This document shows, in pieces, positions 14,221 through 55,285 of a DNA stretch of 64,000 nt (positions are counted from its first letter, which is position 1; every line of letters starts with the position of its first letter). Source of the stretch: a virus. Location of the stretch: positions 16,754 to 80,753 of the IMG/VR virus record IMGVR_UViG_3300008108_000033; one strand, given 5' to 3'. The notes under the pieces were generated by a model that did no database searches, was not told where the DNA came from, and saw nothing but the letters and a program-made list of their open reading frames with translations. Position numbers and translations under genes: made by a program.

Positions 14221-17200
14221 ATGCCTATTGTACCATATGACAAAAATCCGCAAACTTCAGACACTATACTGTTTGATTTATTCACGCCCATGTCGGATGG
14301 CTGTTTTACTCAACAGCCTGTATCTTTTGACTCAATAAAGATTTTCTTCATTTCTAGAAGTCCCGTATTAGCAAACGAATTCACAAATCAGCAAATTACT
14401 TACGATCCACTTTTGCAACGCGCAGTATATGTTGCAACAGAAGATTATTGTGTAGAAACAGACGAACAAATAAAACAGCATTTGCAAATACTAAAAGAAC
14501 GACTTGAATCTCAGCTTCTAAATAATGCTTTGGTTCCAACTACTGGGACAAATGTCGAGCCCGGTGCCGATACAAACACAACTTATTATTACGAATCTGT
14601 TAACGTATTTTGTGCTGGAATTGGTTGTGCTGACGGCGGAGCAGAACTTTGGATTCAAGGTGAAGATAATTCTACGGCTATAGTACAAAGAGTAGAAGAC
14701 GATCCGAAACTATCAAATGGACATTTTAGGTTTTTATGGATTCCGGGCCCAATTAAAGAAGGCGATTTTTTCATCTGTTACAGCTACAAGATGCAGAGTT
14801 CCGCTTACACAACCCAGACCATTACAAAATATTTGCACTTTTATGTATCTGCTGCTATTCAAACAGAGGTAGCAATACCATCTCACGCGTGCCCTCCTGA
14901 AAAATATTTCACTCTTTTGAACAACTATCTTCCAAGAATGTACTTTGAAAAATACAGTGTAAATGATGACAGTGTTTTTACTCTTGAAGCATTAAATCAA
15001 TCCATAGGAAAGTCCTTTACTGATATAGATAATCAGGTTTCTAGGCTTATAGATATTCTTGATGCAAATGTAACTCCTGAGCCTTATTTGACTTTGCTGG
15101 CAAATATGTTTGGATTAAAGTTAAGAAGCTTAGACATTACTAGATGGCGCGGACAAATCATAACGGCTGTTCCGCAATTTAAGAAAAAAGGCACTTTGGA
15201 ATCTTTGAAGCAAGCGTTTTCACAGGCAGGAATTACCTTAACCGACTATTTTCAATATTGGCAAATAGCATGGCCCCAAGTTTACACGCAAACACTGGTT
15301 TACACTAATAGCTACGAATTTGTTTTAGATGAATTTACTAGCGATAGTCTTTTAGATGATTACAGTGCTTTGTTTAAAATTCAACTAGCAGTTGCTGGCA
15401 CATCTTTGTGGGTTGATGAGAGCTTGTCTGTTGCATCATTTTCGCAGAATGCACAGGGCCAAACAGTTTTGACTTGGGATGCGTCCGTAAAAACTTTGTC
15501 AAATGGCGACCAAATTTTGATAACTTATGTCACAGAAAACATGACATCCACGCAGGTTGCATTATACGAATATTGGCGCGATTTCCTTCCTTTGCAAGAC
15601 TTTAGAGATTATTTTCTCATAACTCCAGATATGCCGCCAAAAAACTGGAATATGAGACTAATACTACAAGACGATCCTTTGTTCTCAGTTTTTATACCTG
15701 TTCTAAATCCATTTTATAATCCAATAGTTTTCGGACAAATTAGAACGGAATTCCCATACAGCGAAAATGTTTACAACATGGATGAGTACAACGGAAGCTT
15801 GCGCGATAGCACAAATCCAGCAGATATGGCACCTAGCTATCTGGAAACTTGTTCCGGAGCAATTAGTGCATACTATGGACTAACTTTGTTTGTGTCAAAC
15901 TTAAGCGATTTCAGAATTTCAGAATGTATAGGAATAGTCAATGACTATACACCATTTCATTCTGTTCTAAGAACTCTGAATGTTGTGGGAACATTCGAAG
16001 ATTTTATCTTGCCGCCAATAGAGAGAATCGAATGGCTTATAAACACAACTTACAATGACTACTTTATTGCTGGGGATGCTCAATTTGCATTTAATCGCCG
16101 ATCTTTGTTTTATAACTATGGAGCATCCATGGCTGCATATACTAATGCAGAACACCAGATGACATTTTTTAGAACTGATTTTGCAACAGAAAATATAACT
16201 CCATTACGCAATGGTGCTTTAAATGTTTACAATAAAAATATTGTAATTAAACCACAAAGAAATGTATTAAATTTCAATTCTTTAAATATTCAATTAACAG
16301 ACAATCTTCTGGAAATTTTAGACGGCCCAAAGCAAGGCAAATATGTAAATAAAATCCAAGATGTGCAGCCATATAGTTTAGTATTAGACGAGAGTGGAAC
16401 TCCCAAACCGTTTGCATCTATAACAGTAGGTTCGCCTTTTGGGTGGAGACTCAGCAATAATCTAACGACCCAAACTTTCACAGCATCTAATTTCTACCAA
16501 TTTTCTTTAACAGATAAAGATGTTAATTTTTTAAACATAGCTTATGAAAAAGATAATCAAATATATCACTATGCAGTAAAAACTAAGGTTGAAAACGGGC
16601 CCGAGGCAGATTATATTCAAATAAATGGAATAAATTATACGATTTTATATCTTAACAATAATGCAGTGTACTTGGAAAACAAAATTGCAAATCCCTTATC
16701 AGACGTGGATGCTGACGGAGTTACTTACAAAGTTATAATGTCTAGCACTAATGAAACAATTTTAACTAGTCTAACCGGAGAGTATAAGGTTTGCAAAATT
16801 GCAAAATTTACTGGAACTTATGATTTCGCTGCCATTTGTTATCCGGTTCCGGGCCCAGATTTATATTATTACGATAACACTACATCATCATATTACAAAT
16901 TTTATAGCATCGATCCCAATGATTCTATGACTTTTTATGTCATGGACTTTGATGTTGGACTTACGCCAGTTTCAAAAACAGGAACTATTTACAACAGATT
17001 GATTGAGACTATAGGATCTTTTGAATATACTGGCTTGGTAGCAGATATTTCGCCAACTATAACATTTTACAATCCAGAAACCGTAGTTTTTAGAAATCTT
17101 TTAATTCCCGAACGCACAATATTAACATTGGAAGTTGGATCATCATACTACGATTATTCTATATTTGTAAATTTTGTGGATCCTGATAAAACAGTTCATG

Positions 17201-30760: not shown

Positions 30761-30836
30761 TGTCAAGGTCCTCGTGAGATTCGTAAGAGGGTTTGAACAC
30801 AATAATCTTTACCAGAACAAAAATAAAAAACAAGTC

Positions 30837-31193
30837 TTATTTTGATTTTTTCCTAAGCATGGTTTTAGCTGGCTTGTACTCTATTTTCTGGAATTCATTT
30901 TGCATACCTGAAATTATTGGCGTAAGGGTGCTCGGTATTCCTTTGTAGCCTTTTCTTGTTAATCGAAGCACAAAGTCCTGATGATCTTTGAAATTTTCAA
31001 CGTAAAGCTGCCAATCCATAATCTTTTTGCTTTGCAAAATTTGAACTTTTTGCAGCACATGCAGAGGCATGCTTCCGTGAATTTGATTTATGTCATCAAC
31101 CATAATAGCTTCAGAAATTTTTGTTAGCGATGGTGCTACCGCGCACACCTCAACAGACTTTTTGTCTCTTCTTGCAAAATAAAGTACCTGCAT
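30837..31193 (-). CDS. Hypothetical protein
   Basis: 118-aa ORF co-oriented with the two downstream genes. Confidence 0.55.
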   Translation of the reverse strand: MQVLYFARRDKKSVEVCAVAPSLTKISEAIMVDDINQIHGSMPLHVLQKVQILQSKKIMDWQLYVENFKDHQDFVLRLTRKGYKGIPSTLTPIISGMQNEFQKIEYKPAKTMLRKKSK

Positions 31194-31211
31194 TATTTAC
31201 CACACAGCATT

Positions 31212-31907
31212 TTGAATAATTGTTCGAGAACTATGATAGACGTAGGGTCGTTTAAATCGAATTGTTTGAAAAACTCCTGCAATCCTTCTTCGACCTTGTC
31301 CATATTAACATTGGTTGGCTCAGACATGTATTTAATTTCCGATCTTTTGAAAATAAGGAAGTATCTCCCAATTATTTATACTGGGCACAGGGAAATAGTG
31401 GTTGCTAAATTAATTGTTTTAGTTGCAGGATTACGCAAAAAGCATGATATTAATTATTTTTTGGTTGTTAAAAATGAATTTCGCAGAAGTTTTCCATACA
31501 ACTTTGTAGTAAGCAAAGAAGATTTTGATGTCGCAAGTAGGAGCCTACCAAAGGTTTGTGTTTGCAAAGAGTTAGAAGGAGGAGATACGGTTTTTCAATT
31601 TGCAAAAGAAAATAAAATTGATTTATTTGTTAAAAATTCTGATTCCGAACAAAAAGGGGGCGTTTATTTTTATGGCACTCCACAAGACTATAAAGAAGCA
31701 ACCAAAAAATTTAGTTCTAATTTACTTAGAAATGCTGTAATCACAGATTCTCTTGTTGATTGTGCTGATAAAGCTAAAGTTGTAATTGGAAAAGAAAGCG
31801 CGGGATTAGTGGCTTGTGGTTATTTGGGCAAAATAATAAGAATAATACCAGAAGGAACTATTAATTCCTTCCAAATGATGTTCCCAGACTCAAAATTACT
31901 CGAATAG
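31212..31907 (+). CDS. Degenerate GT9-like glycosyltransferase-fold protein
   Basis: C-terminal DKAKVVIGKESAGLVACGYLGK resembles the GT9 motif ADLVIGNDSGxxHxAAALGxP. Start codon uncertain. Confidence 0.4.
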   Translation: MNNCSRTMIDVGSFKSNCLKNSCNPSSTLSILTLVGSDMYLISDLLKIRKYLPIIYTGHREIVVAKLIVLVAGLRKKHDINYFLVVKNEFRRSFPYNFVVSKEDFDVASRSLPKVCVCKELEGGDTVFQFAKENKIDLFVKNSDSEQKGGVYFYGTPQDYKEATKKFSSNLLRNAVITDSLVDCADKAKVVIGKESAGLVACGYLGKIIRIIPEGTINSFQMMFPDSKLLE

Positions 31908-31962
31908 CATAATATATAAAATACGCTGGTGTTGCATAAATATTCTAGACAAAGGAGATGCC

Positions 31963-32556
31963 ATGAGTGTTTTTCAGGTTAATTTAAACAATCAATATCA
32001 GGGCTACTTAGACATAGATCCCCAGACTGGGATTGAATTTGAAGTAGACTATAACAACCCCTCTATTCAGAGGAAGATGTATGTAGCTGGACCGAATGGC
32101 GAAAATCTTGAATTTAGCGATGGTCAGATATTTACCGATTGCAATTATTGGAAGAGATTTGCTTATCCGCAGGTACCTTTAACGCAGGCTTTCATTACAG
32201 TTCTTTCAGATGATGGATCTATTTGGAGCAACAACCCAGCGGAAAACAACTATCCTGTCGTTTATGCCGACACTTTGGCTGCTGCAGGTTCCTACTCTAT
32301 CGATTTCACTAACAATGGTGGATTTGCCAGCTTCTGTCAGATTTCCAATACTGGTGGTGGTGATTTGACAGTGGAATTGAACGGATTGGCAAGTGCTAGC
32401 ATAGCGCTATCTGCAGGACAAACACAGATTTTCAACTATGGCGACTTGTCTCTAACAGCACTTAACTTGACAAGCGTTGCAGGAACAACTTTCCAAGTAA
32501 TCGCTGGTGTTCAGGTAACTTGCAGCCCGATCGTTACGTCCTTCGTAAATAACTAA
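31963..32556 (+). CDS. Putative virion structural protein
   Basis: Strong AAGGAG RBS; beta-rich S/T/N/G composition with a C-terminal jelly-roll-like pattern. Confidence 0.5.
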   Translation: MSVFQVNLNNQYQGYLDIDPQTGIEFEVDYNNPSIQRKMYVAGPNGENLEFSDGQIFTDCNYWKRFAYPQVPLTQAFITVLSDDGSIWSNNPAENNYPVVYADTLAAAGSYSIDFTNNGGFASFCQISNTGGGDLTVELNGLASASIALSAGQTQIFNYGDLSLTALNLTSVAGTTFQVIAGVQVTCSPIVTSFVNN

Positions 32557-32576
32557 TACAAAAATAAAACACTATA

Positions 32577-32606
32577 ATAGGGGCAGAGGAATATCTCTGC
32601 CCCTAT
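32577..32606 (+). promoter_or_regulatory. Perfect 12-bp hairpin covering the RBS and start codon of the GT9 gene
   Basis: ATAGGGGCAGAG (32577-32588) pairs with CTCTGCCCCTAT (32595-32606); the ATG is at 32605. Confidence 0.6.
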
Positions 32607-33546
32607 GTTTTTTAAGAACAAATCTAAAGAAATTACCCTGCAAAAGTTCAGGGAAATTCAAAACAAGATATGCATTTATCGCGGCATAGGCGGTCTTGGC
32701 GACATTATTGCCATGAGAATGATATTTGAAGATTTGAAAAATCAATATCCTGAATTCGAAATTACTTGGGCTGTGCCATTTGCTTTATTTGCCGCTGCTG
32801 AACAACATCCATTTGTTGATTCCTTGATACATCTAGATTCATATAACAAACATGACTATTTGGAAACATATGATATAACAACTATATGCGGAAAGCAGGA
32901 GGCAATAAATAAAAAGGGGCCATGGAAAAACCGGTCTGATATTTGGGCAGAGTACTTTGGTCTTAAACTAGAAAATCACAATCTACACATGCCAAGATAT
33001 CCTAATCATCATAAAAATGTATTGCAGAGGATAAAAAAGCTCGGATGGGACGGAAATAAAAAACTTGTCGCGTTTTGCCCTAGATCTGCAATCTCGCTCA
33101 AAAACATGACTTTTGAGCAAATACAAGCAGTAAAAGAAATGACTAAAGATTTCTTTTTGTTTGGACTGCATCACGCGCCACTATTAGAATTTGACAACTT
33201 AAAAATACCGGCTGTTTATAACTTTACGCTTCATGAGTGCCTAGCATCCATAGAAATATCTGATTTTGTGATAGCAACTGATACTGGACTTATGCATGTC
33301 GCTGCTGGATATAAGAAACCTACTCTGGCAACATTTAGCTTTGTAGACGGTGAAACATATTGTAAATACTATGAAACGGTGCAGGTTGTTCAGCTACACA
33401 TGCATAATATAGAAAATTGGTGCGGGCCGTGCTACGATTATCCTAGATGTCCACACTCAAAAATTCCGAATGTAAAACCATGTCAGACAGAAATTACTCC
33501 AAAAATGTTGCAAGAAAATTGGGCAAAATTATTAAATAGAGTATAG
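32605..33546 (+). CDS. Glycosyltransferase family 9 (heptosyltransferase-like)
   Basis: GGLGDII, DFVIATDTGLMHVAAGYKKPTL and C-terminal CGPC..C...CQTEITP motifs. Confidence 0.85.
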   Translation: MFFKNKSKEITLQKFREIQNKICIYRGIGGLGDIIAMRMIFEDLKNQYPEFEITWAVPFALFAAAEQHPFVDSLIHLDSYNKHDYLETYDITTICGKQEAINKKGPWKNRSDIWAEYFGLKLENHNLHMPRYPNHHKNVLQRIKKLGWDGNKKLVAFCPRSAISLKNMTFEQIQAVKEMTKDFFLFGLHHAPLLEFDNLKIPAVYNFTLHECLASIEISDFVIATDTGLMHVAAGYKKPTLATFSFVDGETYCKYYETVQVVQLHMHNIENWCGPCYDYPRCPHSKIPNVKPCQTEITPKMLQENWAKLLNRV

Positions 33547-33564
33547 TATTTACTGTAATATCAT

Positions 33565-33804
33565 ATGGCCATACTTATTGATCCTAACAATGTGAAAGTG
33601 ATTAGTCAAAATGGACAAGTCACATTAGCCCTCCAGATTGAATTAAATATCAATCTGAATGGAAATATCACTGCGCAGGAACAATCTTCTAGCTCTAACA
33701 ATTTTAAAGCTTCTTCTTCGCCAATCAAAAATGCGGCAGATGAAGAAGCTGCTTGGCTAGTACCAGATTTTAACTCCAAAGAAAAGGTAAAATTTGGGAA
33801 ATGA
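33565..33804 (+). CDS. Small protein, first gene of the actin operon
   Basis: 79 aa with beta-strand-like N-terminus, Ser-rich linker and aromatic C-terminal tail; preceded by the ACTGTAATA motif. Confidence 0.55.
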   Translation: MAILIDPNNVKVISQNGQVTLALQIELNINLNGNITAQEQSSSSNNFKASSSPIKNAADEEAAWLVPDFNSKEKVKFGK

Positions 33805-33851
33805 GAGGATCATACGGTAATAACAGTACAAAAAAAGAGAGAGGCAAAACT

Positions 33852-34865
33852 ATGGCAGTTTCAGTTGACGTAGGTACTTATACTTTAGTCTCTTGCAAAA
33901 GAGATGCAGATAAGAACTTTGTATTCAAAAAGGAAATCAACGCCTTTCTTGAATTACCATTAGAGAATAGATTTGTTTTCAATATGATGAAACAGGCCGG
34001 TGTGCCACTAATTGAACGTGAAAAACTAGCATACGCTCTCGGTGAAGCTGCAGTGAACATGGCGTATACTCTTCCTACTCTAGAGCTCAAAAGGCCCATG
34101 AAGGATGGTTGCGTCAATCCCAAAGAAAAAGACGCTTTTCAAATTATGTCTATCATGCTTCACTCTTTGATAGACCCAATTTCAAGAGATGGCGAAACAC
34201 TTTACTACTGCGTACCGGCTAATGCAATAAATCAGGAAACTGACGCGGATTATCATCAAAAGGTTGTTGAATCCATTTTCCGAAGCTATCAATCCGACGA
34301 AGGATATAGGGTCAATCCCAAACCAATTAATGAAGCTTTGGCTTTGGTATATGCCGAGTTGCAGAACAAGATGTTCACTGGAGTTGGTATTAGTTGCGGG
34401 GGCGGCATGGTAAACGTTTGCTACGCTATGTATGGCAACCCAATTTTTCAATTCGCAATAGTGAATAGCGGAGATTGGATCGATAAACAGGCAGCCAAAG
34501 CTACCGGCGAATCACCAACTTTTATAAACAAAGAAAAAATGAAAGTGGATTTAACAAAAGATCCTAAAACTTTAGTCGAAAGAGCAATCATTACGCAATA
34601 CCGCCTAATGATAGAAAAAACAATTACCGGAATTAGAGACGGACTTGCGTCCGCAAAACAGTCCGTTAAATCAGAACACCCAGTTGACTTTGTGGTCGCT
34701 GGTGGAACAAGCATGGCCACTGGGTTCGTTGAGATTTTCACTGAAACTTTGAAACAGGCCAACTTGAGCATCCCAGTGGGAGACGTAATCAGACCTGCAG
34801 AGCCGCTTTATAGCGTTGCAAAAGGGTGTCTGATTGCGGCTGAAGCAGCGGACGCAGGAACGTAA
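33852..34865 (+). CDS. Actin-family ATPase, volactin-like
   Basis: Phosphate-1 VDVGT, PINEALAL connect motif, phosphate-2 GISCGGGMVNV, adenosine VVAGGTS and C-terminal EPLYSVAKG. GAGG RBS at 33841. Confidence 0.88.
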   Translation: MAVSVDVGTYTLVSCKRDADKNFVFKKEINAFLELPLENRFVFNMMKQAGVPLIEREKLAYALGEAAVNMAYTLPTLELKRPMKDGCVNPKEKDAFQIMSIMLHSLIDPISRDGETLYYCVPANAINQETDADYHQKVVESIFRSYQSDEGYRVNPKPINEALALVYAELQNKMFTGVGISCGGGMVNVCYAMYGNPIFQFAIVNSGDWIDKQAAKATGESPTFINKEKMKVDLTKDPKTLVERAIITQYRLMIEKTITGIRDGLASAKQSVKSEHPVDFVVAGGTSMATGFVEIFTETLKQANLSIPVGDVIRPAEPLYSVAKGCLIAAEAADAGT

Positions 34866-34880
34866 GAAAGCGAGAATTGA

Positions 34881-35336
34881 ATGTCAAATAATAATATTCA
34901 AAGGTCGGTCCACGACTTAGGAGTGGCCGCGTTTATACTTATGCAGGCTTTTCCTTTGGCAGGCAGAAAAGACAAAACATTTATCTTTTCTGTTCCAAAA
35001 GACAAGGTTAAAGAGTTCGAGGATAATAAAACCGCATATCTTTTCAGCGAATTTCATTACTTCGATCATTGCCTTATGGGGCTCAAAAAACTAGAAGAAT
35101 ACCCATTTAGTATAAATTCAAACAAGTTTGTTACTGACTTAGGGGCAGCTGCCTTTTTGCTTATGCACAAATTTAAGCTTATAGGCAAGAAAGGCCGCGC
35201 ATACTATTTTGAATGCAATACCAAGGAAGACGAGCAACAATTCGATGAATTAAATTTGCAATACGCGTCTTCTGTATTCCACGATTTCGATAGTAAACTC
35301 ATGAGTTTGAAAAAGATTGGTGAATTCAGTAGATAA
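34881..35336 (+). CDS. Tandem two-repeat protein (DUF5659-like)
   Basis: Two ~70-aa repeats: HDLGVAAFILM...FDHCLMGLKKL and TDLGAAAFLLM...FDSKLMSLKKI. Confidence 0.6.
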   Translation: MSNNNIQRSVHDLGVAAFILMQAFPLAGRKDKTFIFSVPKDKVKEFEDNKTAYLFSEFHYFDHCLMGLKKLEEYPFSINSNKFVTDLGAAAFLLMHKFKLIGKKGRAYYFECNTKEDEQQFDELNLQYASSVFHDFDSKLMSLKKIGEFSR

Positions 35337-35368
35337 GTTAATAAATACCTGTTGAGGTTTATCAATAA

Positions 35369-36358
35369 ATGCACAGGTCTGAAACTATTACAGAAGCAAT
35401 AGGCGTATGCGCAAGTCCTAAACAATTTGCTGCTATGGTTTCTAATATTGAAAAAATAGTTCACGACAACATAAAAAAACTAGAATTAGAACTCAAGCTT
35501 GCCAATCGCACTGTTCCAAAAAGAGGAATATTCGATAGAATGAAAAACTGGTGGTATAACATGTTATACGGCCATTCAAACGTAAGCAATCCTTATTACA
35601 ACCGTAACAAATTGGGATACTGGGGCACGCCTAGCAAAAAGAATGAGATGACTCTGCATGAGTACACTTTGCTAAAAAAGAATGCAGACCTATTTGAGCG
35701 CTATTTTGATTCTGGCAGGATTGCACTTGATGATATGCTTGATAGTTGGACTCGCGATTTGATGAGCGATGTAAATAAATATTTACAACAATTTGCTTTA
35801 AATCATTTTAGAGAAATGCCTACTAAAATTAAAAATAGGCCAGAAAAAATAGCAGAACCAGCTGCCACAGTTGGCGAAAGACCAATTAGAAGACGAGTAA
35901 AACCTTTAAGAACAGCTGATGTACAGCCAGCGGCTACAGACCAAGAAGTACCTGACTCATCCGGCGAAGAGGCAGGCGGGTTTGAAAATATATCTGCTGA
36001 TTCTCCTCAAGTAGCCGCGCCAGTAGCCGAACCAGAAATGGCAGCAGCAGTTGCCCCTCCTGTGGGAGAAGAACCAGCAGCATCTGGAACTGCTCCTCCT
36101 GTCACTGGCGATGTTAGTGGCGCTGAGGCCAGAAGGGCAAGTGCTGCCGAAAGAAGGAAATTAGAAAAAAGTAAATTCGATCCTCTGAATAATCCAGCCC
36201 ACGCCGGATTAACACTCGGTGTTACAGATAAAAAGTTAAAAGAATCATTCAAAGCGGAATTTGATAAAACAACTTTATATGAAAGAACAATAATTTGTTT
36301 AGATAAATTAAGGGAAATCAAAGACCAAACATTTTCTGCAGTTCTTCAAGGTTCTTAG
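35369..36358 (+). CDS. Hypothetical protein with disordered Ala/Pro/Glu-rich C-terminal half
   Basis: 329-aa ORF; amphipathic segment GIFDRMKNWWYNML. Confidence 0.6.
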   Translation: MHRSETITEAIGVCASPKQFAAMVSNIEKIVHDNIKKLELELKLANRTVPKRGIFDRMKNWWYNMLYGHSNVSNPYYNRNKLGYWGTPSKKNEMTLHEYTLLKKNADLFERYFDSGRIALDDMLDSWTRDLMSDVNKYLQQFALNHFREMPTKIKNRPEKIAEPAATVGERPIRRRVKPLRTADVQPAATDQEVPDSSGEEAGGFENISADSPQVAAPVAEPEMAAAVAPPVGEEPAASGTAPPVTGDVSGAEARRASAAERRKLEKSKFDPLNNPAHAGLTLGVTDKKLKESFKAEFDKTTLYERTIICLDKLREIKDQTFSAVLQGS

Positions 36359-36644
36359 GCGATTCAACTTTTTCTTCTTCAACAATTTCTTGTTTTTCTG
36401 GGTCCTCCGTTATTACTTGCTCTTCCGCTATAGAAATAATTTTATCGTGATAGATAAAATTTTTACATCCTGTTTGTATGTGTTTAAACCAAAATCCGAA
36501 TTCATTTATGGCGCTAACTTTTCCCACGAAATAATCAATCATGTGTGTTTCATCAAATTTTCTATTGATGGATGGAACAATAAATGTGACAACTTTGTCT
36601 AAAAAATAATTCAAAGATTCTATCTGTTCAGCGCTAATTTTCAT
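36318..36644 (-). CDS. Hypothetical protein, possible Sm/LSm-like fold
   Basis: FLDKVVTF...FVGKVSAINEFG...FIYHDKIISI strand pattern; coupled to the primase gene. Confidence 0.4.
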   Translation of the reverse strand: MKISAEQIESLNYFLDKVVTFIVPSINRKFDETHMIDYFVGKVSAINEFGFWFKHIQTGCKNFIYHDKIISIAEEQVITEDPEKQEIVEEEKVESPKNLEELQKMFGL

Positions 36645-37630
36645 GCTAATTCCGCCTTTTTGATATTGTGATGTAAGTAACCTAGTAAAATTTTATCATC
36701 ATAGGAAGAATAAAGAGCATTCCAGTCTTTAGTAACTTCTGGAGGTCTAGCTTCCATTAAGTCAGAAGCAAATCTGTTGTATTGCATAAGGCGATTGTAT
36801 GCCAAATTTCTAGCGGCATCTCCTGCTGCATCTGCGTCGAAGCAAACAACTATTCTGTAGTTTGATAAGATTATTGATTGTTTTTCACTTATGTTCTTGC
36901 CGCCGCATGCAGCGCCTTTTAATCCACACAAATGCAAACTATATGCGTCAAACTCACCTTCGCACAAAAATACAGTATCACCATAATCTGGAAATCTTGG
37001 GAAATATATCACGTCTTCTTTGCCAACACCGATTTCTTTTTCTGGTCCTTTGTACTTTGGATGAGCATTCCCCATAAATCTTCCGTTGAAATAAACTAAC
37101 TTTTTAGATGAGTTGTAATAAGGTATGATTATTCTGTTCTCATACTTGCCTGCTGTACACACGAAAAAATCGTCTGTCGGTATCTTTCTGGCTTTCAAAT
37201 AATCTACAGCCCGTTCATGGTAAGATATCGGAGATTTGTTTATTTCGTATGCGTAAGGCGGAAAAGACAATATTTTTTGTTCTTTTTCGTAATCTAAATC
37301 GCTTCTAGAGTCATCGAATTGAATATCAAAGTCAGTTTCTTCCAACAAAGGCCTATCAGTCTTCTCTATTCCTAATGTTTCCATGGCTTTTGCGCGTGTA
37401 CATTTATCAACCTCCATGACCAAAGATACAAGAGTGCCTTTTTTTTCTGTTTTCCAGCAATGATAAACGCCATGCTTTACGCGATTTTTACCACCACTTG
37501 GATTACACCAAAGCTTTTTTTTGCCATCTTCAGTAAAAATTGAATTTATAAGTATTTCATTGCCTTTTGGTTCTACTGTCGGGAAACGGCTTTGTGCCCA
37601 AGCCAGAAAATTTGAATAAAGATCAGACAT
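36641..37630 (-). CDS. dnaG: DNA primase (Toprim; T4 gp61/DnaG-like)
   Basis: YLKARKI, NRIIIPY...YFNGR, PKY, LCEGEFDA, FDADAAG and KDWN motifs. Confidence 0.9.
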   Translation of the reverse strand: MSDLYSNFLAWAQSRFPTVEPKGNEILINSIFTEDGKKKLWCNPSGGKNRVKHGVYHCWKTEKKGTLVSLVMEVDKCTRAKAMETLGIEKTDRPLLEETDFDIQFDDSRSDLDYEKEQKILSFPPYAYEINKSPISYHERAVDYLKARKIPTDDFFVCTAGKYENRIIIPYYNSSKKLVYFNGRFMGNAHPKYKGPEKEIGVGKEDVIYFPRFPDYGDTVFLCEGEFDAYSLHLCGLKGAACGGKNISEKQSIILSNYRIVVCFDADAAGDAARNLAYNRLMQYNRFASDLMEARPPEVTKDWNALYSSYDDKILLGYLHHNIKKAELA

Positions 37631-37651
37631 GATATGTCCCTATAATAATAC

Positions 37652-38419
37652 ATGCACATCGAACATCTTAGCGTTAGTCGCAGCGGTTGCTTTGACCAAT
37701 GCAAACAACAGTACAAATTCAGATATCACCTAAAAGTGGTTCCGAATCGACCTGAGCAATTATATTTTACTTACGGCAAGCTTGTCCATACAGCTGCTGA
37801 AATTTTTGTCGAGTCAAAGGGCCAAAAGCCAATACGAGAAATTGTAAGTGACTTGCTGCAAGGGAGAATTGAATTTGACGGCAGCGATAATGTCTGCCGC
37901 TTAGACGAATCATATTTCAAAAAACTTTATGAACATATTGGCTTTATCGAAAGATTTACGCAAAAAGTCGGATTTGATGGAGAGATAGAACATGAAATCA
38001 AGTACGATCTGGACCCACCTAACAACAAAATATTTTTAGGATACATCGATAGACTTATAGTAAGAGATAATCAGGCAATAATTATTGATTACAAAACATC
38101 AAAAAATAATAAATGGAGAAAAAATAAAGTTTCAATAAAAAAAGATTTACAACTAAACGCCTACGCGCTGTATGTACATGAAAAATTCAACATCGCCCCA
38201 GAAAATATTCAAGCTGCTTTGGTTTACTTGGAAGAACCACAGGTAGTAAGCACAAATTTCAATAAACAAGGGTTGCAATTGACGAAACAAATACTTAAAA
38301 ATAGTTATTATGCAATCGAGGAGTTCGATGCTTCCAAAGTCAAAGGAAACGTCGGATATCATTGCAAGAGGTGCGACTATTCAGATCAGTGCCCGTTTTT
38401 TGATGACAGCATGTTTTAG
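37652..38419 (+). CDS. PD-(D/E)XK nuclease (RecB/Cas4-like, probable Fe-S cluster)
   Basis: LSVSR..CFDQC, GKLVH, GYIDRL..IIDYKTS, QLNAYA and C-terminal CKRCDYSDQC. Confidence 0.88.
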   Translation: MHIEHLSVSRSGCFDQCKQQYKFRYHLKVVPNRPEQLYFTYGKLVHTAAEIFVESKGQKPIREIVSDLLQGRIEFDGSDNVCRLDESYFKKLYEHIGFIERFTQKVGFDGEIEHEIKYDLDPPNNKIFLGYIDRLIVRDNQAIIIDYKTSKNNKWRKNKVSIKKDLQLNAYALYVHEKFNIAPENIQAALVYLEEPQVVSTNFNKQGLQLTKQILKNSYYAIEEFDASKVKGNVGYHCKRCDYSDQCPFFDDSMF

Positions 38420-38426
38420 GTGACAC

Positions 38427-38906
38427 ATGTTAAGTAAATACAAGTTTTTCATTTACAACCATCTTATTTTCTTGAATGAAAATCAAAGGTACGATTTATT
38501 TGCATGTGTCCCAGTAACTGCCATGGGCGTAATGATGAAAGCCCAAATTAGCCCAAGAGATTTTGAAGCTCAAAGCATTCAAGAGATTTTTTGCGATTAC
38601 ATTATCGATTGTAATGCTGCAGAAAATGCCATAGAAACGCGCAAAAATAAGGTTTTAATCCATCTTCCCAATCAATCAAGCATGGATGACTTTCCAATGC
38701 CTTTTCAGCCGAAAAACTTGGAAAAATATGATTTGTACGACCTCCTTAACAGAAGTGAGGGAGGTCGCGAAGAACTTTTCTATGAAACTATAAGCGAAGA
38801 TTACGACAGAAGAATTAAATCATTTCATAAAGTTGAAATTAAAGACGAAAAAAGCTTTTACGAAAGTATGGAATTCGTAAAATTTAACATGTCCCAAGTG
38901 ACATAG
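38427..38906 (+). CDS. Hypothetical protein
   Basis: 159-aa ORF directly after the nuclease gene. Confidence 0.55.
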   Translation: MLSKYKFFIYNHLIFLNENQRYDLFACVPVTAMGVMMKAQISPRDFEAQSIQEIFCDYIIDCNAAENAIETRKNKVLIHLPNQSSMDDFPMPFQPKNLEKYDLYDLLNRSEGGREELFYETISEDYDRRIKSFHKVEIKDEKSFYESMEFVKFNMSQVT

Positions 38907-39868: not shown

Positions 39869-40161
39869 TCGCCTAGACTTTCATCGTCATCGTCTTCGTC
39901 GTCCCAGTCTTCGTCGGCGTCGTCGTCGTCGTCTTCCCATTCGTCGTCGTCTTCATAATCGTCTTCATCTTCGTCGTCGTCGTCTTCATCCTCATCGGGA
40001 TCTTCCCATTCGTCGTCTTCTTCCTCGTCTAACTCATCTTCATCATCCTCGTCATCCATCCACTCCTCTTCCCAGTCATCATCTTCATCGTCTTCTGGGT
40101 ATACAGCAGCATTGATAACGGTATCAAGATAACGATCTTCAATCGATTCAATTATGTTCAT
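39865..40161 (-). CDS. Poly-acidic (Asp/Glu) Trp-punctuated protein
   Basis: After ~22 ordinary residues the protein is almost entirely D/E with recurrent W; AGGAG RBS upstream. Confidence 0.7.
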   Translation of the reverse strand: MNIIESIEDRYLDTVINAAVYPEDDEDDDWEEEWMDDEDDEDELDEEEDDEWEDPDEDEDDDDEDEDDYEDDDEWEDDDDDADEDWDDEDDDDESLGD

Positions 40162-43808: not shown

Positions 43809-43857
43809 TTTTATCTCCTATTATAGATATTATAGTTACTACTCTAGTGACACACCT

Positions 43858-45645
43858 ATGAAAAGCATTTGGAAAAAAAAATATAAATCACCAGCTGATT
43901 ATTACAAAAAAAATTATGATCAAGAATTCTATTATTTTGATAAACTACAACTACAAATAGATCCAGATGAAACTGTAGACGACATTAATCTTTATGATCC
44001 TGTCCAACAAGCCGATGAAATTGAAAAATGCGTAAAGAGCTTTCCCTACTTCTGCCACAGATATGTTAAGATTTTACACCCAACCAAAGGCCTCATACCC
44101 TTTGTAATGTACAAATATCAGGCTAGAAGTATAGAATTTTACCAAAAACACAGATTCAATATCATAAGCAAGTTCCGACAGGGCGGATTGACCACCGTGA
44201 CGCTGCTTTATGGGCTCTGGAAATGCATGTTTGAATTAGACCAGCAAATCATGGCATTGTCTAAAACTGACCGCGAAGCTGTAGGCATTGGCATGATGGT
44301 AGACAGGGCCGTCGAACACATGCCAACTTGGATGAAACCAAAAAAGGATGGCAAGTGGAATGACCACTTAAAACAATTTCCCGATACAGGCGGATCTATT
44401 CAGTTCCATTCGCCTGAAGCTGCTCGCGGTAAATCAGTTACGTTTCTTATAATAGACGAAGCCGCGTTTATTCCCGACATGGAATCGCACTGGAAAGCTA
44501 TGTGGCCGGTACTTAGTACTGGTGGAAGTTGCGTGCTAGTTTCCACTGTTAACGGATTAGGTAACTGGTACGAGGAAACATACACAAACGCCAAAGAAGG
44601 CAAAAACATGTTCCACGTAATCGACCTAGATTACTGGGAGCATCCAGATTATTCACCAAAAAATAACCCGAATTGGGAAAAAGAACAGAGAAGTCAATTA
44701 GGAGAAAAAGGCTTCTTGCAGGAAGTATTGCGTAGCTTCTTAGGCTCTGGAGATACTTACATACCTTCTGATAAAATAACAGCAATCGAACAGAGTTTAA
44801 GAAACAAATATCCATACAAAAGATTATTCCCGCAGTTTTGCAACAAAGATGTTCCAGAAGAAAACGATAGTGAGTACGAAAAAGGTGCCTTATGGATATG
44901 GCAAGAGCCTAAGGATGGCGCGGATTATATTTTGGGAGTTGATTGCGCAGAAGGAATAGGCTCGCACGGCGATAATTCATGCATACAGCTAATAAATGCA
45001 AATACTCTGGAACAAGTTGCAGAATTCTATAGTCATAGCATCCAGCCACACGACTTTTCTCATATTGTACACGAGCTAGCAAGCGCTTATAATTCGGCAC
45101 TTGTGATAGTTGAAGATATGTCTAGCGGCGGCATAGTTTTGGATATGCTTTTCAGAGAATTGTCTTATGAAAACTTGTTTTATCCGCCTAAGTTTACCAA
45201 AAATGTAAAACCCGGCATAAAGATGTCAGTGAATGTAAGACCTATTGTGTTGCAAGGCTTTCAAAGCAGAATTCTCAATGGTGCCCTGCAAGTAAATAGC
45301 CGCAGACTACTGAATGAAATGAAAACATTTGAATACAACAGCTCAACCAAAAAAGCCGAAGCAGCCAGAGGAAAACATGATGATGCCATCATAGCCATGG
45401 CGCTAGCTTTGTATGCAAGAGATCAAAGCATAAGAGACGTTCCATTAGGAATGACCGCTGGTGAACAAAATAATAAAACCCAAGCTAATATTTCTGACAT
45501 TAGGGAAGAACTGAGAAAAGGGTTAAAAGAATCAATTTTTGATAAAGTTATGAAAAAAGAAAAATCCTTAGAAGATTTGGAAAATGAAAATTTACTTAGA
45601 ATGTATAGAAAGCAAAACTCTCTTCTAAAAGACTTCGGATGGTAA
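43858..45645 (+). CDS. gp17: Terminase large subunit
   Basis: YKYQ, KFRQGGLTT, ARGKS, LIIDEAAFI, VSTVNG, and nuclease motifs GVDCAEG and HDDAIIA. Confidence 0.95.
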   Translation: MKSIWKKKYKSPADYYKKNYDQEFYYFDKLQLQIDPDETVDDINLYDPVQQADEIEKCVKSFPYFCHRYVKILHPTKGLIPFVMYKYQARSIEFYQKHRFNIISKFRQGGLTTVTLLYGLWKCMFELDQQIMALSKTDREAVGIGMMVDRAVEHMPTWMKPKKDGKWNDHLKQFPDTGGSIQFHSPEAARGKSVTFLIIDEAAFIPDMESHWKAMWPVLSTGGSCVLVSTVNGLGNWYEETYTNAKEGKNMFHVIDLDYWEHPDYSPKNNPNWEKEQRSQLGEKGFLQEVLRSFLGSGDTYIPSDKITAIEQSLRNKYPYKRLFPQFCNKDVPEENDSEYEKGALWIWQEPKDGADYILGVDCAEGIGSHGDNSCIQLINANTLEQVAEFYSHSIQPHDFSHIVHELASAYNSALVIVEDMSSGGIVLDMLFRELSYENLFYPPKFTKNVKPGIKMSVNVRPIVLQGFQSRILNGALQVNSRRLLNEMKTFEYNSSTKKAEAARGKHDDAIIAMALALYARDQSIRDVPLGMTAGEQNNKTQANISDIREELRKGLKESIFDKVMKKEKSLEDLENENLLRMYRKQNSLLKDFGW

Positions 45646-47310: not shown

Positions 47311-49845
47311 ATGGCAACCCCAATATGGGCTGACTTTTTCAAAACTTGGGACTTTGCATTTGCAAGAGATCCAGTTTCCCGTTCTATAGACCCGAAAGAT
47401 TTGGTCGGTGCTGGTATAGCACAGCCAGATGCTATTCCAACACTAAACCCAGATGGAAGCTTCTGGAGCAATAGCGACTCACGATTAATTCGCCTACGCG
47501 AAACTAATGATTTCATCGACCTATCAACTGTTAGTAATAGGCAGTCAAGATACAAGGAATACGAAAGACTAAGAACAATTCCAGAAATTGAATGCGCCCT
47601 CAACGTATTTTCAGATGAAGCATGCTTGGCCGGAAAAACTTTGGTATCAACGCCTTTCGGCATGATTCCAATCGAAAAATTGGCTACAACACATAAAAAT
47701 GATAAGTTTTTGGTTTACTGCTATGATTTCAGCAAAAAAGATTTCGCTCTAGGATGGGCACATAGCCCGAGAAAAACAAAAACGGCAGAAACAGTTACAG
47801 TAATACTTGACGCAGGCAAAGATATTCAATGCACACCAGACCATAGAATTTTGCTGAGAGACGGCACTTGGAAATATGCAGGCGACCTAAAAGAAGGCGA
47901 TCTCTTGATGCCTTTTTATCGCATGCCAGTAAATCAATTTTGCAACAATCTGCCAAGCAAACAATACCCCAGAATATTCACCTTTAGCCATGGCTGGATA
48001 CACGAAAGACATTTTGTAGACAGCTGGAGACTTGGAAAAGTAGACAAGAAAATGGAACGCGTATCCTATTACGCCAGACTTCTTGCCTCAGACCTAAACA
48101 TGAACCAAATCGCACAGCAAGCCGAATGCGATTGGAAGACTGTAAAAAATAGACTACGCGCAGAAGGACATACAGTAGATGAACTAAGATGGCTAGGAAA
48201 CCACAAGGATTGCAGACGAGTATTGGGCGTAGTTAAAAGCGAAGTTGTTGATGTTTATGACCTTACAGTCGAAGAACACCATAACTTTGCTACTGATTCC
48301 ACAATAGTTCATAACTGCCAAAAAGATAGCGATGGAAATGTCGTTCAAATACACTGCGCTGATGAAGATGTGAAAATGGAACTTGAATTCCTTTTCCTGC
48401 ATCGAAATATGATTAATTTAAATCGCAGAGTGTGGTCCGATTTCAAGAGCCTGCTCCTGTACGGCGATTTGTTCTATGAATTAGTTATAAATCTAGATGA
48501 CCCAAAAGAAGGCGTAATGAAAATTACGCGCCTCCCCCCAGAATCAATGTACAGAATTGAAACAACAAAAGGCAGAGTTGTAGAATTCCAGCAGTCCAAA
48601 GAAGGACCAGACTATCAAAGCTTGACCAAAGCTCCTGTTGTACATGCAACAGACCAAGAAATTGCAATGGCAACGGCTATACGATTTAGCCCAGAACAAG
48701 TAGTACACGCACGCCTAGGTGACGATAGAAGAACATTTTACCCTTACGGCGTAAGCATAGTAGAGCCAGCTAGAGGCCCCGCAAATCAATTAAGATTAAT
48801 GGAAGACTCCATGTTGGTTTATAGGCTTGCAAGAAGCCCAGAACGCAGAGTTTTCTATATCGACGTCGGACAATTGCCTCCATTTAAGGCCGAAGCATTT
48901 GTTGAAAGACTCAAAGACCAATTCCGCAAAAAGAAAGTTAGCCACCACCAAGGACAGGCTGGCGGATATAATCCAAATGCCGTTGACGAAAAATACCACG
49001 CGCCTGCGGTAGATGAAGACTTTTGGCTGCCTATCCGACCAAATTCCAACACCAAAATCGAAACTCTTCCCGGTGCTCAAAACCTAGGCGAAATTGATGA
49101 TGCAATCTATTTCCGCAATAGATTATTCACCGCTTTGCAGTTCCCTAAGAATTACATGAATACGGAAGACCCACAGCAAACCAAGGTAACCTTGAGCAGC
49201 CAAGATGTAAGAGTGGCAAGACTAATTGAGAGATTTCAGGCTCCTTATGAAGATATTCTTTGGGAAATTGCAGATAGACACTTGAAACTAAGAGGCTTCC
49301 CAACGGAAACATACGAAGACCTTAAAATAAAAATGACTCAGCCATCTGAATGGCGCGAACTAAGCCGAGCAGAAGTTGTAAATGCCAGAATTCAAAATGC
49401 AACTTCTCTCAAGGGCGCAAATATCCTTTCCGACTACGATATTCTCACCGGCTGGATGAAATACAGCGAAGAACAAGCCAAGATACTTACTGCGCGCATG
49501 AAGATGCAAAAAATCGAAGACGCAAAGCTTCAAGTGCTTTCGCAGAATCCAGCACTTCTTGGAGTTGGCATTCCCGGCACTGGCGAAGAAGACCAAAACA
49601 AAATTGGTACTACGCCCGAAGGCCCGAATAATGAACTTTCGCCAGAAGGATTGCCGGCACCAGAATCCCAACCTCCAGAACAAGGCGAAGAGGCATCGGC
49701 AAAAGAACAACCAGCAGCAGATGTACAGTCAAGCACCGTACTCAAACAGCCAAACGAAGAAGATTTGGTCAAGTACGATATTGAAATCCAGAATTATGCA
49801 AGCGAAGAAGATATCGAACCAGTAGATTACAGCGATTACGAATAA
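47311..49845 (+). CDS. gp20: Portal protein, T4 gp20-like, containing an intein
   Basis: PEIECALNVFSDEA, PYGVSIVEPAR..ANQLRLMEDSMLVYRLARSPERRVFYIDVG and EDFWLP...IETLPGAQNLG motifs. Confidence 0.95.
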   Translation: MATPIWADFFKTWDFAFARDPVSRSIDPKDLVGAGIAQPDAIPTLNPDGSFWSNSDSRLIRLRETNDFIDLSTVSNRQSRYKEYERLRTIPEIECALNVFSDEACLAGKTLVSTPFGMIPIEKLATTHKNDKFLVYCYDFSKKDFALGWAHSPRKTKTAETVTVILDAGKDIQCTPDHRILLRDGTWKYAGDLKEGDLLMPFYRMPVNQFCNNLPSKQYPRIFTFSHGWIHERHFVDSWRLGKVDKKMERVSYYARLLASDLNMNQIAQQAECDWKTVKNRLRAEGHTVDELRWLGNHKDCRRVLGVVKSEVVDVYDLTVEEHHNFATDSTIVHNCQKDSDGNVVQIHCADEDVKMELEFLFLHRNMINLNRRVWSDFKSLLLYGDLFYELVINLDDPKEGVMKITRLPPESMYRIETTKGRVVEFQQSKEGPDYQSLTKAPVVHATDQEIAMATAIRFSPEQVVHARLGDDRRTFYPYGVSIVEPARGPANQLRLMEDSMLVYRLARSPERRVFYIDVGQLPPFKAEAFVERLKDQFRKKKVSHHQGQAGGYNPNAVDEKYHAPAVDEDFWLPIRPNSNTKIETLPGAQNLGEIDDAIYFRNRLFTALQFPKNYMNTEDPQQTKVTLSSQDVRVARLIERFQAPYEDILWEIADRHLKLRGFPTETYEDLKIKMTQPSEWRELSRAEVVNARIQNATSLKGANILSDYDILTGWMKYSEEQAKILTARMKMQKIEDAKLQVLSQNPALLGVGIPGTGEEDQNKIGTTPEGPNNELSPEGLPAPESQPPEQGEEASAKEQPAADVQSSTVLKQPNEEDLVKYDIEIQNYASEEDIEPVDYSDYE
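47623..48315 (+). mobile_element. Intein (231 aa) in the portal gene, homing endonuclease degenerate
   Basis: Block A CLAGKTLV, block B TPDH, block F VYDLTVEEHHNF, block G IVHN followed by a +1 Cys. Confidence 0.93.
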
Positions 49846-53845: not shown

Positions 53846-55285
53846 ATGAACGCTAATGCACGTTTTTTGAATGAAGCAAGAGAATTAGAGACTCGTTGGA
53901 GCAAAACCGGTATTCTAAAGGGCATCGAAGACCCTTATGTCCGCTCTGCTACAGCAGTTCTACTAGAGAATCAGAGACTTATCAATGAAACAGCAACCGA
54001 CACATCCGACGTTGCTCAGTTCAAGAGAATCTCCATTCCTCTTGTCCGTCGTATCTATCCCCAGCTAATCGCTAACAAGATTGTTAGTGTGCAGCCCCTA
54101 CTCGGCCCAACCGGCTTGGTATACTACCTCCGCTTCCGTTATAGCTCCAACAAGGGCTATATGCAGGGCGCTTCCAACGACAGCGGCTTCCCCGCTGACG
54201 ATGTGAACTCCCTCCAGCAGAGGGCTAGTGGTGATGCCAATCTTGACATCTACTACTCCAGCCAGTTCGTCCAGAACGAGAAGACCCCTGACACCATCGC
54301 CGTTCCTAACGCGACCGTCAACATGGGTAACTTCCAACACACCCCGATTCTCGCGGGAACAATCACCGGTACTGTCTACCTAAACGGCACTGTCACACAG
54401 ACCTTCACCGTAGCCAGCAACGGCACCTTCACCTTCAATACCGTTTCCGGTACTGACCTCGCCACCAGCGGTTCACTAGACCTCAACACTGGCGGTTTCA
54501 GCCTAACTTGGAACGGCACTGCAGCCGGCCCTGTTTACTGCGTAGTCTCCTACGAGTACAACATGGAATGCAATCAGGACCTCCCTGAAATCAACCTAGT
54601 CGTTGAGTCAGAAGAGATCGCTGCCAAGACTCGCAAATTGAAGGCCGTTTGGTCCTATGAGGCTCAGCAGGACCTCCGCTCTCAGCACAATCTAGACGCT
54701 GAGGCTGAGTTGACCGCTGTTCTAGCTCAGGAAATCAACCTAGAAATCGACCGTGAGTGCGTTCAGGACCTTCGCCAGAACGCCGGTACTGTCGCTGCTT
54801 GGGACCTCGCTACCGCCCTTGGTGATACCATCAAGGAAAAGTATGAGTCTCTCTACGTGAAGATCGTTGAAGTTTCCAACGTCATCCACAGAAAGACCCT
54901 ACGTGGCGGCGCTAACTTCATCGTGACCTCACCTGAAGTTTCCTCAATCTTCGAGACAGCCACCGCAGGTTTCGCACCAGCTCCTTCTGAGACATTTACT
55001 AGCTCACTTGGTATTCAGTACGTCGGTACTGTTGCTAACCGCTATCGTCTCTACAAGGACCCCCTATTCCCAACCAACCAGTTGTTGATGGGTTATAAGG
55101 GCGACTCCTACATGGATTCGGGCTACTTCTACTGCCCCTATGTACCACTAACACAAACACCAGTTGTGCTAGATCCAGAGTCTTTCTGTCCGAGAAAGGG
55201 TATATTGACCCGCTACGGAAAAAAATTACTCAGGGAAGGCGCAAAGTTTTATGCGAGATTAAGTATCGCAAATTTCGTAGTTTGA
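53846..55285 (+). CDS. gp23: Major capsid protein, T4 gp23-like
   Basis: LLENQ, PLVRR, VQPLLGPTG, AKTRKLKA.WS.EAQQDL, EINLEIDRE, YCPYVPL and TRYG motifs. Confidence 0.97.
   Translation: MNANARFLNEARELETRWSKTGILKGIEDPYVRSATAVLLENQRLINETATDTSDVAQFKRISIPLVRRIYPQLIANKIVSVQPLLGPTGLVYYLRFRYSSNKGYMQGASNDSGFPADDVNSLQQRASGDANLDIYYSSQFVQNEKTPDTIAVPNATVNMGNFQHTPILAGTITGTVYLNGTVTQTFTVASNGTFTFNTVSGTDLATSGSLDLNTGGFSLTWNGTAAGPVYCVVSYEYNMECNQDLPEINLVVESEEIAAKTRKLKAVWSYEAQQDLRSQHNLDAEAELTAVLAQEINLEIDRECVQDLRQNAGTVAAWDLATALGDTIKEKYESLYVKIVEVSNVIHRKTLRGGANFIVTSPEVSSIFETATAGFAPAPSETFTSSLGIQYVGTVANRYRLYKDPLFPTNQLLMGYKGDSYMDSGYFYCPYVPLTQTPVVLDPESFCPRKGILTRYGKKLLREGAKFYARLSIANFVV

Follow-up and report, generated by a model that had tools for sequence, protein, structure and literature searches.

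A volactin-family actin and two small partner genes in a T4-like huge phage: a candidate phage filament system

Phage-built cytoskeletons are known in the form of the tubulins PhuZ and TubZ and of one prophage actin, AlpC. What, then, is an actin-fold gene with a small gene on either side doing in the DNA of a very large phage? We examined this question in a stretch of 64,000 nucleotides (nt; hereafter the window), positions 16,754 to 80,753 of the IMG/VR virus record IMGVR_UViG_3300008108_000033, which is 80.8 kb in length and has a CheckV completeness of 16%. An initial annotation of this DNA had described a three-gene unit formed of a 79-amino-acid (aa) protein, a 337-aa actin and a tandem-repeat protein, and all three open reading frames (ORFs) are present:

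33565-33804, + strand: p79, the upstream partner, an ORF of 79 aa
33801-34865, + strand: volactin-family actin, an ORF of 354 aa, with an alternative start at 33852 that gives 337 aa
34881-35336, + strand: p151, the downstream partner, an ORF of 151 aa, a tandem of two ~70-aa domains

The three ORFs are tightly packed, with the stop codon of p79 and the first ATG of the actin gene overlapping as ATGA. The ATG at 33852 is preceded by a Shine-Dalgarno-like run, GAGAGAGG, and as most homologues are 334–336 aa in length while the nine closest keep the 353–354-aa form, both actin starts are possible. On the evidence set out below we lean towards a reading in which these genes would form a filament system, made by the phage from its own actin and two dedicated cofactors, that organises the infected cell.

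A complete member of the volactin family

Using Pfam with an E limit of 0.1 for the window proteins, the sole match of the actin was PF25216 (Volactin), which was covered over its full length (model positions 1–321 of 321; 222.5 bits against a cut-off of 35; E 1.3e-65), while PHROGs gave no match for the actin, p79 or p151. A search of the genome returned this Volactin match as well. Alignment with the VolA orthologue of Haloferax gibbonsii, which itself scores 450 bits against the Volactin model, showed 34% identity over 335 residues (E 4e-64). The volactin motifs that the initial annotation had named were all found in the alignment with this orthologue, which carries RPMxxG, YHxK, PINE..A..Y.EL, FTG.G.S.G.GM.N.C, GDWID.Q.A.ATG and PLYSVA.G. 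Likewise, the window actin carries the family signature, namely RRPM..G, then S.G.G[ML].N followed after 18 aa by GDW[ILV]D, and PLYSVA.G, and it keeps 14 of 14 invariant and 17 of 17 near-invariant positions in a 42-sequence family alignment. The further claim that all nucleotide-binding motifs are intact holds relative to volactin but not relative to canonical actin, as the phosphate-2 residue is Ser across the volactin family, VolA included, and Asp in actin, MreB and ParM. Some members have been annotated generically by JGI as an “actin-like ATPase involved in cell morphogenesis”.

An AlphaFold2 model of the actin (predicted local distance difference test score, pLDDT, 95.5; predicted template modelling score, pTM, 0.92) has the four-subdomain actin fold. 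The nearest solved structures were MreB, MamK and BeeR, followed by eukaryotic actins, with template modelling (TM) scores of 0.6–0.7 and 14–18% identity, and the closest chains were 5jyg/5ljv (MamK), 8r2n (BeeR) and 4czk/1jce (MreB) at TM 0.66–0.71. A PDB search with the single actin sequence gave no match, and it was only the family profile that reached MamK (2e-15), BeeR (2.5e-11) and MreB (8e-9), with FtsA at 5e-6. There was no ParM among the 51 PDB profile matches (E up to 1) and no ParM family in the Pfam scan (E up to 0.1). MamK, BeeR and MreB are therefore closest by both profile and fold, but they are set apart from the window actin by their low identity, by the place of true MreBs as the outgroup of the tree described below and by its assignment in Pfam to Volactin only.

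These searches also bear on whether the protein could be a non-polymerising member of the ASKHA superfamily, akin to a chaperone, a kinase or EutJ. Hsp70, EutJ and PilM do occur far down the profile and fold lists and Ser replaces the canonical phosphate-2 Asp, both in favour of such a protein. However, this Ser is family-wide and common to VolA, the top folds are all filament formers, and the Volactin match is full-length with the window actin in one clade with VolA. We consider this alternative, along with its variant of a recently captured host gene that has no phage-specific role, to be very improbable.

The phylogeny of the family was assessed with a maximum-likelihood tree of 68 rows (LG+G4, with support from the Shimodaira-Hasegawa-like approximate likelihood ratio test, SH-aLRT), with four true MreBs and two MreB-like proteins as the outgroup, from which rows >70% identical to a kept row and representatives <37% identical to the window actin were left out. 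The volactin clade, including a haloarchaeal row, was separated from the MreB/MreB-like outgroup with an SH-aLRT of 99 which, together with the Pfam match to Volactin only, supports the proposal that the gene encodes a volactin rather than a ParM, MreB or FtsA. Archaeal members are basal, with bacterial members and phages forming a subclade (support 100), and the window actin is up to 39% identical to members from Planctomycetota and other bacteria versus 34% to Haloferax. The original match to haloarchaeal volactin thus stands with respect to the family but is not specifically haloarchaeal, since the gene sits in the bacterial-type subclade. The window lineage is itself monophyletic, comprising 12 dereplicated phage rows (support 100), and is joined at a support of 97 by six database representatives of unknown origin, with its immediate sister group not resolved. 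Actin identity is 51–92% inside the phage clade and ≤39% to any cellular member, which points to long vertical inheritance in phages and not to recent capture from a host. Recent host capture was rejected on the tree and on the fixed synteny described in the next section, the phage clade being old as well as monophyletic.

When each prokaryotic species, represented by one genome, was scanned with a DNA pattern built on the family signature, volactins were retrieved from Halobacteria (Haloferax, Halorubrum, Natrialba and others), Methanosarcinales and Archaeoglobaceae, and also from many Planctomycetota and from Patescibacteria and Omnitrophota. Planctomycetota metagenome-assembled genomes (MAGs; L080, L093, L135 and L147) often have two volactin paralogues side by side, and many Planctomycetota carry versions extended at the N terminus by 130–580 residues (e.g. 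P0141, 908 aa). Among viruses, the 485-kb phage LR745208.1 (L211) has a separate volactin lineage, pairing with a contig labelled as a Thermoplasmata MAG (L178), and four more viral contigs (L213–L216) encode further distant volactins. The volactins of these other phage and virus lineages (29–33% identity) occur without p79 and p151.

As a rule, inteins are found in important proteins and at critical positions. Several of the phage actin alleles are ~700 aa in length and contain a Hint and LAGLIDADG intein between Ser181 and Cys182, in the phosphate-2 loop (L070–L074 and L079; e.g. L071:6013-8154; P0121, P0130), while the window allele is intein-free with the +1 Cys kept. We take an intein in this loop as a sign that the actin matters to the phage.

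Conservation of the cassette and its partner proteins

We compared the neighbours of the actin gene by tblastn in 78 related loci (74 IMG/VR contigs and four MAG-binned contigs; actin 51–92% identical). p151 is directly downstream in 77 of these and p79 directly upstream in 71, hence both flanking genes are conserved with the actin, and operon conservation was a check that the initial annotation had named. Hidden Markov models of p79 and p151 gave no match beside ~117 other volactin genes from cells and other phage lineages, with only the 595-kb phage introduced below being matched, and the C-terminal motif of p79 was not found beside cellular volactins. p79 and p151 are phage-only neighbours, co-inherited with the actin. 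The four MAG-binned contigs, which have the full cassette (L076–L079), are labelled Acidimicrobiaceae, Chloracidobacterium, Bacteriovoracaceae (a 546-kb contig) and Neisseriaceae; with labels from four unrelated phyla, they are most likely mis-binned phage contigs.

The structural genes of the window are of T4 type:

53846-55285: Gp23-type major capsid protein
47311-49845: Gp20-type T4 portal, interrupted by an intein (Pfam Intein_splicing at residues 155–335, Portal_T4 at residues 352–729)
43858-45645: T4-type large terminase

The window also encodes baseplate proteins, a Toprim primase and a PD-(D/E)XK nuclease. With its Gp23, Gp20 portal, terminase and baseplate genes the DNA is from a phage, as had been supposed, and its gene content identifies the window as a fragment of a T4-like huge phage with a predicted genome of roughly half a megabase. 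The splicing domain of the portal intein is placed in the N-terminal third of the Gp20 gene. In GenBank, the nearest records come from uncultured huge phages, one of 595 kb (actin 61% identical) and one of 485 kb (31%). A single volactin gene is present in each of two near-complete relatives, at 458 kb (91% complete) and 595 kb.

Alignment of p79 homologues showed three regions: a conserved, beta-rich N-terminal segment (..LIkP..VKvvTkdGE....LNINLN), a variable acidic/low-complexity linker in the middle, and an almost invariant C-terminal tail (W.IPDF...K..FGK). The protein has no Pfam or PHROG family and no hydrophobic segment, and its Atlas model is disordered, with no relatives in Atlas.

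The halves of p151 match each other at 42% identity (E 3e-15), so the earlier label of tandem-repeat protein was correct, and its AlphaFold2 model (pLDDT 94.9) has two beta-alpha-beta-beta-alpha-alpha domains. A single-domain form of 70–86 aa occurs in some relatives. DUF5659 (PF18903) was matched by five of 39 aligned p151 homologues (best E 3e-5) and not by the window p151 itself. The Atlas clusters of p151 are viral, and a related cluster has DUF5659 in 37% of its members. Foldseek and a wide VIA search found no convincing PDB match for p151, only generic small alpha/beta folds (best Z 5.0). Matches to LidA_Long_CC were also seen in 26 of the 39 homologues (best E 1e-7; window p151 below the cut-off) and were treated as uninterpretable. 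The median isoelectric point of the p151 family is 6.5, near neutral.

Transcription signals and neighbouring genes

Two candidate signals were located upstream of the cassette:

33520-33547, + strand: weak sigma-70-like promoter match, TGGGCA-16-TATAGT (9 of 12 positions), 17 nt before the p79 start
32577-32606, + strand: strong hairpin with a T-rich tail, a 13-pair stem with 7 GC pairs

The initial annotation had placed the unit behind its own promoter-like motif. In favour of this, the 9 of 12 match is present, and 19 of 53 non-identical relatives have a CTATA[AT] box 10–35 nt 5' of the p79 start, versus 3.6 ± 1.7 in shuffles. However, the count of sigma-70-like sites in the region is not above that of shuffled sequence, and the exact CTATA[AT] box is absent 5' of p79 in the window itself. 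CTATAAT(A) boxes do lie 10–45 nt 5' of several window genes (18083, 32572, 37640, 41935, 43826-43835 on the minus strand, 47264 and 55385) and may be a common promoter element of the phage. The T4 late-promoter box TATAAATA was considered as well and rejected, being present 5' of p79 in four of the 53 relatives and not in the window. Overall, a promoter private to the unit is weakly supported, and a transcription start directly before p79 is plausible. At 32572-32610 a CTATAATA box is followed by the GC-rich, 13-bp hairpin, the T-run of which overlaps the start codon of a GT9-like gene. The hairpin lies between the gene for a 197-aa protein on one side and the GT9-like gene and cassette on the other, and is likely to mark the upstream limit of the transcription unit.

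The genes next to the cassette are as follows:

31963-32556: gene for a 197-aa protein, preceding the hairpin and the GT9-like gene, with no family and a weak match to phrog_35108; found further upstream in 72 of the 78 loci
32605-33546: GT9-like glycosyltransferase gene, just upstream of the cassette; 54 of the 78 loci
35369-36358, + strand: 329-aa protein with a Pro/Ala-rich low-complexity middle, the next ORF downstream and co-oriented, with no Pfam family; 19 of the 78 loci

The 329-aa protein is a variable neighbour and not a fixed part of the cassette. A primase and a nuclease were found in 51 and 48 of the loci, respectively. Further along the window, positions 39884-40024 form a degenerate TCG/TCA-rich tandem array with periods of 3, 18, 30 and 33, which, if read on the minus strand, would give an acidic Asp/Glu-rich repeat.

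Possible roles in the infected cell

How might the three proteins work together? Inside the infected cell the phage actin most likely uses ATP to polymerise, while p79 most likely docks on the actin via its C-terminal tail and would nucleate, cap or anchor the filaments. p151, as a pseudo-dimer of a DUF5659-like domain, most likely either couples the filaments to cargo or regulates them. Such a filament system could serve to place replicating DNA, procapsids or assembly sites within the cell, a task performed by PhuZ and AlpAC in other phages.

The founding volactin is VolA (HVO_2015) of Haloferax volcanii, which has a role in cell-shape transitions and, in vivo, assembles into dynamic filaments that cross the cytoplasm and attach at their tips (Schiller et al. 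2024; PMC10869688). The phage actin resembles it in the full-length PF25216 match, in the 34% identity to the H. gibbonsii orthologue and in the shared motifs, including the phosphate-2 Ser and GDWID, and both loci have a dedicated small gene immediately upstream on the same strand. In H. gibbonsii (L082:1468-5401) this gene, directly 5' of the VolA gene, encodes a DUF7139 protein in which an anchor is followed by an acidic linker and a short tail at the C terminus, and a CetZ tubulin gene lies ~0.6 kb downstream of the volactin gene to give a small cytoskeletal cluster. The DUF7139-VolA arrangement forms an archaeal parallel to p79 and the phage actin. The two systems differ in that the phage actin belongs to the bacterial-type subclade and its host is probably bacterial, in that the upstream partner is the soluble, 79-aa p79 where Haloferax has a membrane protein, and in that the phage locus has an extra, DUF5659-like partner downstream.

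This comparison also raises the alternative that the cassette takes over the host, acting on its envelope or divisome, for example by blocking division or by enlarging the cell for very large virions. VolA is a cell-shape determinant (PMC10869688), MreB is among the nearest solved folds, and the GT9-like glycosyltransferase gene is just upstream in over two thirds of the loci. However, the sequences of the actin, p79 and p151 showed neither a membrane-binding helix nor a transmembrane segment, the locus lacks the DUF7139 membrane partner of archaea, and the GT9-like gene is missing from a third of loci. We therefore regard an action on the host envelope or divisome as unlikely.

Among phage-encoded actins, the closest description is that of prophage CGP3 of Corynebacterium glutamicum, in which phage DNA is tethered to AlpC actin filaments by AlpA, an adaptor encoded upstream (PMC4446434). 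Compared by description and not by sequence, both have a phage-encoded actin co-transcribed with a small upstream adaptor gene, the link between DNA and filament having been proposed to aid replication. Unlike the present locus, CGP3 is a cryptic prophage of ordinary size, and AlpA binds repeats 5' of its own operon, of which none were seen at the phage cassette.

A related possibility is partition of the ParMRC kind. The phage genome, in a carrier or pseudolysogenic state, would then be segregated by the actin as a plasmid-like episome, and either p151 or p79 would bind the centromere as adaptor. As in ParMRC, Alp7AR and AlfAB, an actin-fold filament protein is followed by a small partner gene, the order resembling parM-parR; DNA binding would be compatible with a small domain in tandem or dimeric form, and one relative has been classed as a “provirus” by IMG/VR. 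Set against this, neither the Pfam scan nor the PDB profile search gave a ParM signal, and no ribbon-helix-helix or other DNA-binding fold was matched for the partners, with p151 reaching only the generic folds noted above and p79 predicted to be disordered. Furthermore, p151 is not basic, the gaps between genes are 15–30 nt with no iterated repeats or adjacent centromere repeats nearby, and the gene content is of a T4-like, lytic type. Partition of this kind is, in our judgement, improbable.

PhuZ, the tubulin of nucleus-forming jumbo phages (Chimalliviridae), is likewise a cytoskeletal NTPase of very large phages and is thought to organise DNA and capsids, although it is a tubulin and not an actin, and the structural genes of the window are T4-like and not chimallivirus-like. 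A bolder form of the filament-system reading, which we put forward tentatively and with less confidence than the filament system as such, is that the cassette represents a third kind of phage cytoskeleton, actin-based, tubulin-independent and private to T4-like phages of ~0.5 Mb. The p79 tail would then sit in the end-binding groove of the actin, and the p151 pseudo-dimer would couple dynamic filaments to DNA or procapsids in a role like that of the PhuZ spindle.

Several points weigh against a filament system. Neither p79 nor p151 has an informative family or fold match (Pfam and PHROGs for both, Foldseek/VIA for p151 and Atlas for p79), and the near-neutral p151 does not favour a DNA-binding adaptor. 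Likewise, no centromere-like or parC-like repeated DNA sites were found near the cassette, at 30800-38500 or elsewhere nearby, where intergenic gaps are short. With Ser in place of the phosphate-2 Asp, the ATPase chemistry of other actins is not simply transferable to this one. Finally, the lack of a Pfam Tubulin match in the 458-, 343-, 323- and 595-kb relatives, which speaks for a system that does without tubulin, has limited force as divergent PhuZ-like tubulins could escape the Pfam model.

The literature on volactin gave no phage context, and that on phage-encoded actin led to AlpC only. The huge-phage survey behind the two GenBank relatives mentions tubulin and not actin, and a 2026 jumbo-phage review has no mention of actin, MreB or ParM. 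In these searches we found no characterised phage volactin system, in keeping with what the initial annotation had said.

If the filament-system reading is correct, a large and environmentally widespread lineage of half-megabase phages would long have carried its own actin and two private cofactors. The volactin family, with its archaeal determinant of cell shape, is also extended here to bacteria and viruses. The cassette would offer a compact, three-protein system in which to study the regulation of actin filaments by minimal adaptors, and a handle on how giant phages organise the infected cell without a phage nucleus or a tubulin spindle.

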